64,000 nucleotides of DNA from Eledone cirrhosa (GCA_964016885.1 OZ024746.1:83390001-83454000); one strand, 5' to 3'. Shown: positions 5,267 to 54,389, numbered from the stretch's first letter. Program-made: numbers and translations. Notes: generated by a model from the sequence alone, not told the origin.

Positions 5267-5599
5267 AGGTCAGGTAAAACCTTGTCGAAGCTCTGTTTGA
5301 TGCTCAACCCTAAAAAACTACAATCAGTGTTCGAGAGGAGATACTTACACTTAGATATTTGCTTCCAGATGCTTTATGAGAATTACAAATTGGTGTTAAG
5401 CAGGTTAAAACGTAAGGTATCGTCATCATCTTCATCGTTGTCATCAGATAGAAAGAAAAAACGGAAGAAGAAGAGAAAAAACAACACGACAGAAGAGGAA
5501 GAAACCTCACCACATAATAAAAGAAAGCATAGAACTAGTAAACACAAACACCACAAACGCAAACACAATAAAAATAAAGAAAATACATTAAATAAATAA
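5267..5599 (+). CDS. HAT1: Terminal coding exon, divergent HAT1-like C-terminus plus Ser/Lys/Arg/His-rich tail (putative proximal alternative last exon of HAT1)
   Basis: Acceptor ttgttcattttcag ends at 5266. The phase-0 reading is RSGKTLSKLCLMLNPKKLQSVFERRYLHLDICFQMLYENYKLVLSRLKRKVSSSSSSLSSDRKKKRKKKRK...NTLNK, with TAA at 5597-5599 and AATAAA motifs nearby (~5590-5740). The first ~47 aa align with the 54213 exon and with the recalled human HAT1 C-terminus (L.P..L ... L...FQ.L.E.Y..V..RL). Confidence 0.65.
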   Translation, partial: RSGKTLSKLCLMLNPKKLQSVFERRYLHLDICFQMLYENYKLVLSRLKRKVSSSSSSLSSDRKKKRKKKRKNNTTEEEETSPHNKRKHRTSKHKHHKRKHNKNKENTLNK

Positions 5600-6606
5600 A
5601 AACAAAAGTGGAATTTAAGGAAGATGTGGGTAGTTGTGCTAAGGATAGAAATAATTTGGAATTTGAAAGAAAAATACTTGCTACTTTTATTTGTTTTTTC
5701 TTTCTATTTTTTTTTAAATATTTCAATAAAAAAAATAAAAAAACAATTTCAAAAGAAAAAACAACTTGCTTAAATAGGAAATGTAAATTGAACCAGGAAT
5801 GAGATTTATGTGTTTAGACATGTATATATGTATTTAAATATGTATATGTATATCCACACACACAAACATCTCTCATTTCAAGTTTCAATTCCTGTGTGTG
5901 TGTGTATATATATAATCTGTGCATATTCACACACATGGCATCCAGAGTGTGAGTGGACTTGAAATTTGAAAGTATGTTAACTTAGTGTAAGCTGCTACAA
6001 CGCGAGCTTGACTATTGAATAGTTGAACCTGCTTTGGAGAAGTTTACAGTAAGCCATTGTATTTTCAAATTTTAATATATATGAGTGTGTGTATATATGT
6101 ATATGTGTGTGCGAAGGAAGGTTTAAACCTGACCACGGCACCTAGCAGTTTCAGATAGGTGTCGTTCAGGCTGATACCTTAATCCTTCCCATGCATTCAG
6201 TACTACCCTGATTTTTGATCTCACCGGTCTTAGCACTGCAGACTCTCAATATATTTATGTGTGAATATGTGTATATATATGTATATGTAAAGGCTTGTGG
6301 CTTTGTGTTGAGGGTGTTCAGTTAATGATCATAAAGTTGTGAATTCAATTCTTGGGCCGGGCAGTGTTATGTCCTTGAGTAAGACATTTTATTTCATGTC
6401 GCTCCAGTTCACTCAACAGACAAAATAAGTTGTACCAGTAATTCAAGAGACAAACCTAGTCACACAATGTCACACTGAATCTCCCTTAGAACTACATTAA
6501 AGGTGCATATGTTTGTGGAATGCTCAACCACTTAACATTTATTTAACGAGCACGCATATCCATTCATTGAATCAACTAGAGCACTTGTCATCAGAAATAG
6601 ACCAAA

Positions 6607-9600
6607 TGTGTATATATATATATATGTATATAAATATATATATGTATATATATATGTATATATATATATATATATATATGTATATATATATATATATATA
6701 TATATATATATATGTATGTATATATATATATATATATATGTATATATATATATGTATATATATATATGTATATATATATATATATATGTATCTATATATA
6801 TATATGTATATATATATATATATGTATATATATATATATATGTATATATATATATATATGTATGTATATATATATATATATGTATATATATATATATGTA
6901 TATATATATATATATATGTATATATATATATATATATGTATATATATATATATATATGTATATATATATATATGTATGTATATATATATATATGTATATA
7001 TATATATATGTATATATATATATATATATATGTATATATATATATATGTATATATATGTATATATATATATATATATATATGTATGTATATATATGTATG
7101 TATATTTATGTATGTATATATATCTATGTATGTATATATATCTATGTATGTATGTATGTATATGTATGTATGTATATATATCTATGTATGTATATGTATG
7201 TATGTATATATATATATGTATGTATGTATATATATGTATGTATGTATACATATATATGTACTGAACCCCACGTGGGATCAGTAATAGCCACACTTATCTA
7301 TAGCATTTTGGAGCAAAACCCGTTGATAACACGGCTTCCTTGTTCAATCATCTTACCAGAAGCCCAACATTCTTTATGTAGGCGGACAGTACCTGATTTT
7401 GGAGTCGCAGAAACCAATACTGGATTTTACCATCAGTCCAGGGTCCGGGAAAGTATCAACACATATATTTTTATTGTTTGACCCGAATTACTTGGTCGTT
7501 TGTTTTGGCTGTGCGGATGATCTGTTTAACCATCATCTCGGTGTGTTTGGCCCTTAACGTATGTGTAGCTCTGATTCACGTGAATCATCGAGCGCTTGCC
7601 AACACATATCGGACGTTGATTTTCGTTATTCCTGAGCTGAAATACGATTCTCGCTAATTTATATTTCTATATTTATATGTATATATATATATATATGTGT
7701 ATATATATATATGTATATATATATATATATGTATATATGTATATATATGTATATATATATATGTATATATATTATATATGTATATATATGTAGTGTATAT
7801 TATATATTATATGTATGTATATGTATGTATATATTATATATGTATATATATATGATTAATATATATGTATATATATATATGTATATATATATATATGTAT
7901 ATATATATATATAAGTATATATATATATATGTATATATATATGTATATAAATACATGTATATATATATATATGTATATATATATATGTATATATATATAT
8001 GTATATATATATGTATATATATATTGTGTATATATATGTATAATATATATGTATATATATATATGTATATATATATATATATATGTGTATATATATATAT
8101 GTATGTATATAGATGTATGTATATATATATGTGTATATATATGTATATATGTGGTATATATATATAGTGTATATATATGTATATATATATATACTATGTG
8201 TTGTATATATATATATGGTATATATATATATATGTGTATATATATATATGTGTATATATATATATGTGTATATATATATATGTGTATATATATATATGTG
8301 TATATATATATGTGTGTATATATATATGTGTATATATATTATGTGTGTATATATATGTGTGTATATATATATGTGTATATATATATATGTGATATATATA
8401 TATATGTGTATTATAATATATATATATGTGTATATATATATGTGTAATATATGTGTAAATATATATATGTGTATATATATGTGTATATATATATATATGT
8501 ATATATATGTACATAATATGTGTATGTATATATATGTATATGTATATATATATATATGTACATATATATGTGTATGTATATATATGTATATGTATATATA
8601 TATGTATGTATATGTATATATTTAAATATGTATATATTATGTATGTATATATTTATGTATATATATATTTATGTATATATAATATATGTGTGTATATGTA
8701 TATATATATGTATGTATATATATATGTATGTATATATATATGTATATATATATATATATGTATATATATGTATATATATATATATATGTATATATATATA
8801 TATGTATATATATATGTATGTATATATATATATGTATGTATATATATATGTATATATATATATATATATATGTATGTATATATATATGTATATATATATA
8901 TATATATATGTATGTATATATATATGTATATATATATATATATATGTATGTATATATATATATATATATATATATATGTATGTATATATATATGTATATA
9001 TATATATATATATATATTATATATATGTATGTATATATATATGTATATATATACTATATATATATATATATGTGTATGTATATATATATGTATATATATA
9101 TATATATATATATATATATATGTATGTATATATATATGTATATATATATTTATATATGTATGTATATATATATGTATGTATATATATATGTATTATATAT
9201 ATATATATGTGTATGTATATATATGTGTATGTATATATATATGTATGTATATATATATGTATGTATATATATATGTATGTATATATATATGTATATATAT
9301 ATATATTATATGTATGTATATATATATGTATATATATATATATATATGTATGTATATATATATGTATGTATATATATATGTATGTATATATATATGTATG
9401 TATATATATATGTATGTATATATATATGTATGTATATATATATGTATATATATATATATGTATGTATATATATATGTATGTATCATATATATGTATGTAT
9501 ATATATATGTATGTATATATATATGTATATATATATATATATATGTATATATATATGTATATATATATATATGTATGTATATTATGTATGTAATGTATAT

Positions 9601-53819: not shown

Positions 53820-54024
53820 TTAACCCTTTAGCATTCACATTACTCTACATTTACTATTGTATTTTCACAGAAAAGTCTTTATCTCACATAATATTGAATC
53901 TGAGATTTTTAGATTATTTATTTTGAGAACACTACCTTAATGTTGGTATGAGGGGGCCGGTTTGAACAGAAAGAGGTGAGAGAATTCTGGCTGGATACGG
54001 CCGGTTTAAATGCTAAAGGGTTAA
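53820..54024 (-). mobile_element. piggyBac-type MITE inserted in a SINE tail, ~190 bp upstream of the distal HAT1 exon
   Basis: catcatcat-ttaa[MITE]ttaa-tatccattttccgcacttgcatggg. Confidence 0.88.
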
Positions 54025-54212
54025 TATCCATTTTCCGCACTTGCATGGGTTAGGCGGGTTTTCATGTTATGGAACAAGTCAGGTTCGGAGACCATGTCAT
54101 GCTCGTACGGATCTGTATTTTGACTTTGTTTCTAACACCAACCACATTATATATATATTTGTATTTGGTTATTTATATATTTTTATTTTTATTTCTTTTT
54201 TTTTTTTTTCAG

Positions 54213-54389
54213 AAAAACGGTCGGGACTTTAAAAAATTAGAAACTATCCTTCAACCTGATGAATTATCAGCCACGATGCCAAACCTAAATGCTGAACAGA
54301 AGTATGCTCTGCTTGATAAACAATTCAACGAGACAGTGCAGATCTATCACCACGTCATTGATCGTTTGCAGTGTTTGGCAGAGCCTTAA
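54213..54389 (+). CDS. HAT1: Terminal coding exon of histone acetyltransferase type B catalytic subunit (canonical C-terminus)
   Basis: A long poly-T tract plus cag acceptor ends at 54212. The phase-0 reading is KNGRDFKKLETILQPDELSATMPNLNAEQKYALLDKQFNETVQIYHHVIDRLQCLAEP*. It aligns without gaps to the recalled human HAT1 end KKQRDLAKMRKCLRPEELTNQMNQIEISMQHEQLEESFQELVEDYRRVIERLAQE. Confidence 0.85.
   Translation, partial: KNGRDFKKLETILQPDELSATMPNLNAEQKYALLDKQFNETVQIYHHVIDRLQCLAEP

Follow-up and report, generated by a model that had tools for sequence, protein, structure and literature searches.

Two long-diverged last exons of an octopod HAT1 gene, one likely to hold the enzyme in the nucleus on chromatin through a basic tail

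HAT1, the catalytic subunit of a type B histone acetyltransferase that acts with RbAp46/Hat2 on K5/K12 of free H4, is a conserved and normally single-form enzyme, and its annotated human isoforms differ at the N-terminus. Two human proteoforms, nuclear and cytosolic, have been proposed to differ in location; the accessible part of PMC13494561 leaves it unclear whether they originate by splicing or by proteolysis and treats the division of HAT1 between cytosol and nucleus as an open question. The octopod forms described here are also predicted to differ in location, and unlike the human ones they have homologous last exons. Duplication of a 3′ coding exon, with homologous C-termini reached through alternative polyadenylation, is a known class of gene architecture: such C-terminal tandem duplicated exon substitutions account for 77 of 236 human events in the accessible portions of PMC8373072 and PMC9741552. 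HAT1 is mentioned neither in the main text nor in one supplementary file of each of these two papers, the second file being short and possibly partial. Here, we analyzed a window of 64,000 nucleotides (nt) from Eledone cirrhosa (G000:C6:83390001-83454000), which holds two terminal exons of HAT1, a proximal exon A and a distal exon B. Our reading, which we regard as probable, is that one octopod HAT1 gene has two long-diverged last exons and that a basic tail keeps the A form in the nucleus, on chromatin. The locus resembles the known class in its duplicated 3′ coding exon, homologous C-termini and, very probably, alternative poly(A) sites, but its copies lie 49 kb apart and are about 30% alike, and exon A has reversed its charge and gained a 58-residue tail. 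The class itself is well known; what is likely new is the HAT1 case, in which a region missing from all five solved HAT1 sequences is swapped and the enzyme is probably retargeted.

The gene was traced upstream of the window. Three HAT1 exons precede it (Table 1), the last of which ends in a phase-0 donor at G000:C6:83365104, before gtaag and 24.9 kb upstream of the window. Four exons of the locus, collinear on the + strand, are 92-100% identical to Octopus HAT1 residues 229-412, and since their order and strand agree with those of named HAT1 proteins, the locus is assigned to HAT1 by orthology. Searching the window with Octopus HAT1 by tblastn returned 54210-54386 (95% identity, E 3e-31) and 5261-5410 (29%, E 0.047), the following match having an E value of 4.7. 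With a full-length HAT1 profile run over 364 kb (10,300 six-frame segments), the matches below E 2.6 were limited to exons A (E 0.031) and B and the three exons upstream; no HAT1 core exon was found between A and B by either search, in agreement with the earlier note on this DNA, which had been made by inspection of the window. Exon A begins at 5267 behind a ttttcag acceptor (5260-5266) and is a phase-0 open frame of 110 amino acids (aa) with a TAA stop at 5597-5599, and exon B is a phase-0 open frame of 58 aa with a TAA stop at 54387-54389; the note's two + strand, phase-0 terminal exons are thus present, with both acceptors and both frames. Each exon gave a single match in the 3.0-Gb genome. 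The introns from the shared donor measure 30,162 nt to exon A and 79,108 nt to exon B. Both exons are terminal, each closing with a stop codon, and neither rejoins a common downstream exon, which sets them apart from Dscam-type mutually exclusive internal exons; the strict definition of mutually exclusive exons, as given in the accessible part of PMC8373072, leaves terminal swaps out. Compared with the C-terminal class, the two exons are homologous and share gene, donor and phase with one exon per message, the joining of the donor to B being drawn from a contig branch and from Octopus models.

Exon A sequence was detected in four runs of one study, none of which is recorded as RNA; run X3 was taken as RNA solely on account of its contigs, in which introns are skipped at the exon borders. 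DNA run X1 contains all sampled words but gave no contig over 5100-5700, which carries no weight because records are filtered. A contig of 1112 nt (record 17) lies on the three upstream exons at contiguous record coordinates (272-379, 119-271 and 2-118), which shows splicing, and extends a single letter past the donor. Another contig of 452 nt (record 5) spans 5267-5689, and the 29 loose letters before 5267 are the last 29 bases of the donor exon. This demonstrates the donor-to-A junction and removes the concern that exon A might be spliced to a foreign gene. The 29 letters and the one letter past the donor make up the 30-letter overlap expected of 31-mer contigs. Because such contigs break at branches, and exons A and B both start with A and differ at the second base, a break one letter past the donor fits two alternative acceptors. 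Donor-to-B splicing is thus very likely, given this branch and the orthologue models, so that of the earlier proposal of one donor spliced to either exon, the donor and its junction with A are observed and its junction with B follows indirectly. Contig depths were 10.9 for exon A and 27.3 upstream, values not taken as an isoform ratio. AATAAA is present behind both exons, and the contigs cannot show transcript ends; for exon A, the best candidate poly(A) signals are the copies at 5725 and 5734, motif matches in A-rich DNA.

The same two endings, after the same residue (…LPFH), occur in Octopus. O. sinensis has isoforms X1 (XP_029634299.1, 461 aa, A ending) and X2 (XP_029634300.1, 412 aa, B ending), O. 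vulgaris has CAI9719859.1 (A ending) and CAI9719858.1 (B ending), and an unnamed 200-aa fragment (P0006) carries the A ending. These proteins are automatic models; within the Octopus HAT1 cluster, both endings sit on identical N-terminal sequence. A third predicted ending from the same donor, O. sinensis X3 (P0003), consists of three residues and a stop; no acceptor with codons for an ending of this type was found in the 79-kb intron of the E. cirrhosa genome. The Hat1_N (PF10394) and HAT1_C (PF21183) domains are both present in both Octopus isoforms, and the HAT1_C exons were mapped in E. cirrhosa. Exon B shares 56 of its 58 residues with Octopus HAT1 (P0001/P0002), its peptide being 97% identical to the HAT1 end of O. 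vulgaris/sinensis and O. bimaculoides, and by this comparison it is the ordinary HAT1 ending. In exon A, 48 of the 52 residues of the helical part are identical to isoform X1. The tail, 58 residues beyond the HAT1-homologous part and rich in S, K, R and H, runs from a Ser run through a 10-residue K/R cluster and a short acidic patch to a K/H-rich end; it differs from Octopus by indels, yet the composition and the cluster are retained in P0004, P0005 and P0006, as are the Ser run, a K/R cluster of 8-10 residues and 7-8 histidines in the exon. The reading frame is open in all four A-type sequences. The attribution of both endings to HAT1 made in the earlier note is upheld, through this identity for B, through the terminus profile below for A and through the collinear upstream exons, and the recurrence of the pair in other Octopus species makes an assembly misjoin unnecessary. 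The note had also considered the arrangement undescribed. Full-text search, with subscription journals outside its coverage, found neither an account of last-exon duplication in HAT1 nor any work on HAT1 isoforms of cephalopods, but the pair is already present in the automatic models of RefSeq and GenBank, which carry no statement on the homology or role of the endings. Surprise is limited accordingly, as the architecture is of a known class and the isoforms stood unremarked in public annotation.

Among 405 proteins, the anchor motif that precedes the last exon was present in 276, of which 269 were from outside Octopus, and 129 were dropped as partial, distant or unrelated. The survey sampled 21 protein clusters in addition to the two of Octopus, taking at most 15 members of each, and covered no decapodiform genome. 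Neither the P-K-K-L signature nor a run of at least five K/R was found in any of the 269 non-Octopus HAT1 termini, and three proteins from the cuttlefish cluster and one further cephalopod-like protein were all of B type. This suggests that the A-type ending is an octopod feature.

BLASTP gave no alignment between exons A and B, and their DNA aligned with a score of 29 against a codon-shuffle mean of 35; as the earlier note had it, the nucleotide sequences are no longer alike. A profile built from 118 distinct non-Octopus HAT1 termini nevertheless ranked B first and A second among 3440 segments, with E 4.6e-4 for A and 0.47 for the third. Exon A scored 22.0 bits on this profile, a value reached by none of 5000 shuffles (best 11.2, with 4776 reported), and its reversed sequence scored -0.7. 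The alignment starts at residue 1 in the same phase and contains one 5-residue gap, and in codon register 15 of 49 residues are shared with B, so the reported common register of the two peptides is borne out. Base identity between A and B is 18/49, 28/49 and 13/49 at codon positions 1, 2 and 3; third positions are saturated and second positions kept, the pattern expected of an old duplicate constrained as protein. All 12 of 12 hydrophobic columns are retained in A, as happens in 2 of 100,000 shuffles, which agrees with the note's statement that both frames are open and keep the hydrophobic pattern. The near-invariant K8, P15, R30, Y45 and R51 are retained as well, whereas five of seven conserved acidic columns are lost and two kept. 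Exon A lacks a 5-residue loop present in other termini, and its HAT1-homologous part has a net charge of +7, against -0.44 ± 1.53 (maximum +3) in the 118 other termini. On these comparisons exon A is a true homologue of the HAT1 terminus. In a tree of 40 termini and 55 columns, its placement with octopod B (p-AU, from the approximately unbiased test, 0.34) or with all cephalopod B (0.40) was neither rejected nor shown. Exon A is equally far from octopod B (15/48) and from other animals (10-18 of 48-49), which means that the duplication cannot be dated; of the old duplication under selection claimed earlier, the saturation and the constraint stand. Judged from the sequences, exon A diverged fast once and has been held since.

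The swapped region begins at residue 355 and lies beyond everything solved so far. Five distinct solved HAT1 sequences (2P0W, 6VO5, 9MJG, 1BOB/4PSX, 4PSW, 7XAY) all stop at octopus residue 327, and Pfam HAT1_C covers residues 276-327; they share the core with the octopus proteins, but the region from 355 onward, roughly the last 60 residues, is in no solved structure and no Pfam family. The exon A and B peptides alone returned nothing useful from PDB sequences or Pfam. According to the accessible part of PMC9067401, the structure of the yeast complex was determined with Hat1 1-320, a form that retains activity as well as binding to Hat2 and H3-H4. With the structures and HAT1_C ending at 327, this places the swapped exon outside the catalytic core. 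The AlphaFold models of the two Octopus isoforms have a common core (mean predicted local distance difference test, pLDDT, 87 and 90), and the core model matches human HAT1 with a template modelling score of 0.96-0.97 on target at 50% identity. Acetylation of H4 is predicted for both proteins, since each very probably keeps the catalytic GNAT core and the HAT1_C module (residues 17-327). Helices are modelled at 358-366, 369-375 and 381-407 in the B isoform and at 360-366 and 369-407 in the A isoform, where the 5-residue gap removes a loop and 369-407 is predicted to form one helix of 39 residues; pLDDT falls under 50 at 406-436. Octopods thus offer a natural swap of the HAT1 end, in which the fold pattern is kept and the surface charge reversed, and side-by-side comparison of the A and B forms would test the role of this region and whether the tail sets HAT1 location and substrate.

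Alternative last exons, each with a poly(A) site of its own, almost certainly underlie the choice between the endings. Cleavage behind exon A would end the message early, and skipping of its weaker acceptor (75% against 95% pyrimidine) would let transcription run 49 kb to B. Exon A would keep the amphipathic terminal helix, fused into a single 39-residue helix, and would reverse the acidic surface, P-D/E-E-L becoming P-K-K-L. The classical basic nuclear localization signal (NLS) consists of an exposed cluster of the form K(K/R)X(K/R). Such a cluster is present in all A tails examined (window, P0004 and P0006) and in no B ending, its surroundings in the A tail are disordered in the model, and the isoelectric point is 9.4 for the A isoform and 6.4 for B. 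On balance, the K/R cluster and the K/H-rich end are predicted to act as an import signal and a nucleic-acid-binding anchor. With its acidic surface lost and an import signal of its own, the A form would be retained on chromatin or in a nuclear body, and the B form would stay a chaperone-associated enzyme for new histones. A further step is possible but doubtful: the octopod last-exon switch may give two enzymes, a chaperone-bound acetylase of new histones and a self-importing form tethered to chromatin or the nucleolus, the tail and the charge-reversed helix of the latter letting it work on nucleosomal or non-histone targets under tissue regulation, for example in non-dividing neurons. If so, splicing would have turned a type B acetyltransferase to type A behaviour, and the case would reveal the role of the unsolved C-terminal helices in all HAT1 enzymes.

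Several points weigh against a nucleus-retained A form made by one two-ended gene. Residues 1-228 were not found in the assembly, and completeness of the 5′ half depends on the 1112-nt contig. All RNA evidence comes from a single run, of unrecorded library type, in one study; the donor-to-B junction in this species comes from the branch and orthologue models, and no poly(A) site or peptide has been observed. B-type homologues supplied the alignment from which the A model was folded, and the model is biased toward them; the K/R cluster is a candidate signal recognized as an NLS-type pattern. Finally, HAT1 is mostly nuclear by immunofluorescence (PMC13494561, as far as accessible), so that an import signal may add little to an enzyme that is already mostly nuclear without a tail.

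This last point also favors the main rival, which accepts the same gene structure but has exon A act chiefly on partner binding or activity and less on location: the charge-reversed helix would lose or acquire a protein partner, be it a histone, a chaperone or another protein, and the basic tail would compete with the H4 tail or mimic it. Exon A has lost acidic positions that rank with the best conserved of the family, column 17 being acidic in 99% of the 118 termini, which suggests a binding surface, and for yeast Hat1 the accessible part of PMC9067401 describes contacts of the adjacent C-terminal helical module with the H3-H4 fold. Against this, yeast Hat1 1-320 is active and binds Hat2 and H3-H4 without the region, no partner of the terminal region was found in the literature as far as it could be accessed, and the accessible parts of PMC6884459, PMC8483321, PMC12958820 and PMC9560165 yielded nothing on a role for the HAT1 C-terminus. 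Partner rewiring also explains the kept 8-10-residue K/R cluster less simply than targeting does. We consider it unlikely as the main function, although it is compatible with targeting and both may hold. Still less probably, exon A is a relic that is tolerated, undergoing some splicing but having no selected function. Its very long branch (2.4 changes per column), its identity of about 30% to all other termini and the lack of protein evidence for A fit a relic, but the helical part has stayed almost identical to Octopus while the adjoining tail drifted by indels, the frame is open in every A-type sequence, and all hydrophobic columns are kept despite saturated third codon positions. Recruitment of an unrelated intronic exon with a chance likeness to the HAT1 end would account for the failed BLASTP and DNA alignments, but it is largely refuted and very improbable, given the profile rank and shuffles, the alignment from residue 1 of both exons in one phase and the complete set of hydrophobic columns. 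A tandem pair of HAT1 genes and an artefact of assembly, for which the missing 5′ exons and a nearby assembly gap could speak, are both scarcely credible, as no core exon was found between A and B, A is spliced to the only donor found, and models of two other species put both endings on one identical N-terminal sequence.

The gap consists of 200 N at C6:83350801-83351000, 9.4 kb before the first mapped exon, and is preceded by a G/T-rich tandem repeat with a unit of about 32 nt. Neither the genome search nor tblastn over the 260 kb that precede the first mapped exon gave a match to HAT1 residues 1-228, and the gap may hide the missing 5′ exons. In O. bimaculoides, models P0002, P0009 and P0010 likewise go wrong past residue ~228, at the same intron.

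Table 1. Exons and signals of the HAT1 locus; positions are those of the window unless C6 coordinates are given.
Feature	Position	Strand	Evidence
Upstream HAT1 exon, residues 229-264	C6:83360419-526	+	
Upstream HAT1 exon, residues 265-315	C6:83362139-291	+	
Upstream HAT1 exon, residues 316-354	C6:83364988-83365104	+	
Exon A 3′ splice site	5207..5266	+	CTAAC ~50 nt upstream (branch-point-like, motif match only), pyrimidine tract 75%, TTTTCAG; junction at 5267 in spliced contig
Exon A, HAT1-homologous part, 52 aa	5267..5422	+	Profile match; identity to Octopus isoform X1; helical in AlphaFold model
Exon A tail, 58 aa and stop	5423..5599	+	Composition, Octopus comparison, AlphaFold model; mostly disordered (predicted)
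Exon A 3′ untranslated region	5600..5760	+	Transcript contig extends to 5689; AATAAA at 5725 and 5734
Exon B 3′ splice site	54153..54212	+	95% pyrimidine tract, T-run and CAG
Exon B, canonical HAT1 last exon, 58 aa and stop	54213..54389	+	Octopus HAT1 identity; terminus profile 80 bits
Exon B probable 3′ untranslated region	54390..55230	+	AATAAA at 54886 and 55097; motif only

Outside the HAT1 comparisons, a metagenome scan for exon A gave 591 pattern matches, none of which was confirmed, and the ESM Atlas leads (NKAPD1, CIR1 and DUF755; scores at most 0.85) were rejected as compositional likeness only. At codon 28 of exon B (54294-54296), octopod exon B has K in a column occupied by R in 88% of HAT1 termini. 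The R is also found in exon A and in the cuttlefish protein, so that A keeps an ancestral residue lost by B. A TA/TG dinucleotide array of 7.1 kb (6611-13724, ~3560 units, 76% matches) starts 1 kb past the exon A stop, within the intron toward exon B. Downstream of exon B, a broken fragment of a Tc1/mariner-type transposase lies at 57593-58211 (HTH_32 E 1e-9, HTH_48 E 5e-7), the sole Pfam match among 64 long open segments scanned. Related short open segments on the minus strand at 15196-15558, 38719-39084 and 61179-61382 gave no Pfam match at E 0.001; presumably they are ends of LINE/RTE reverse transcriptases, which they resemble.

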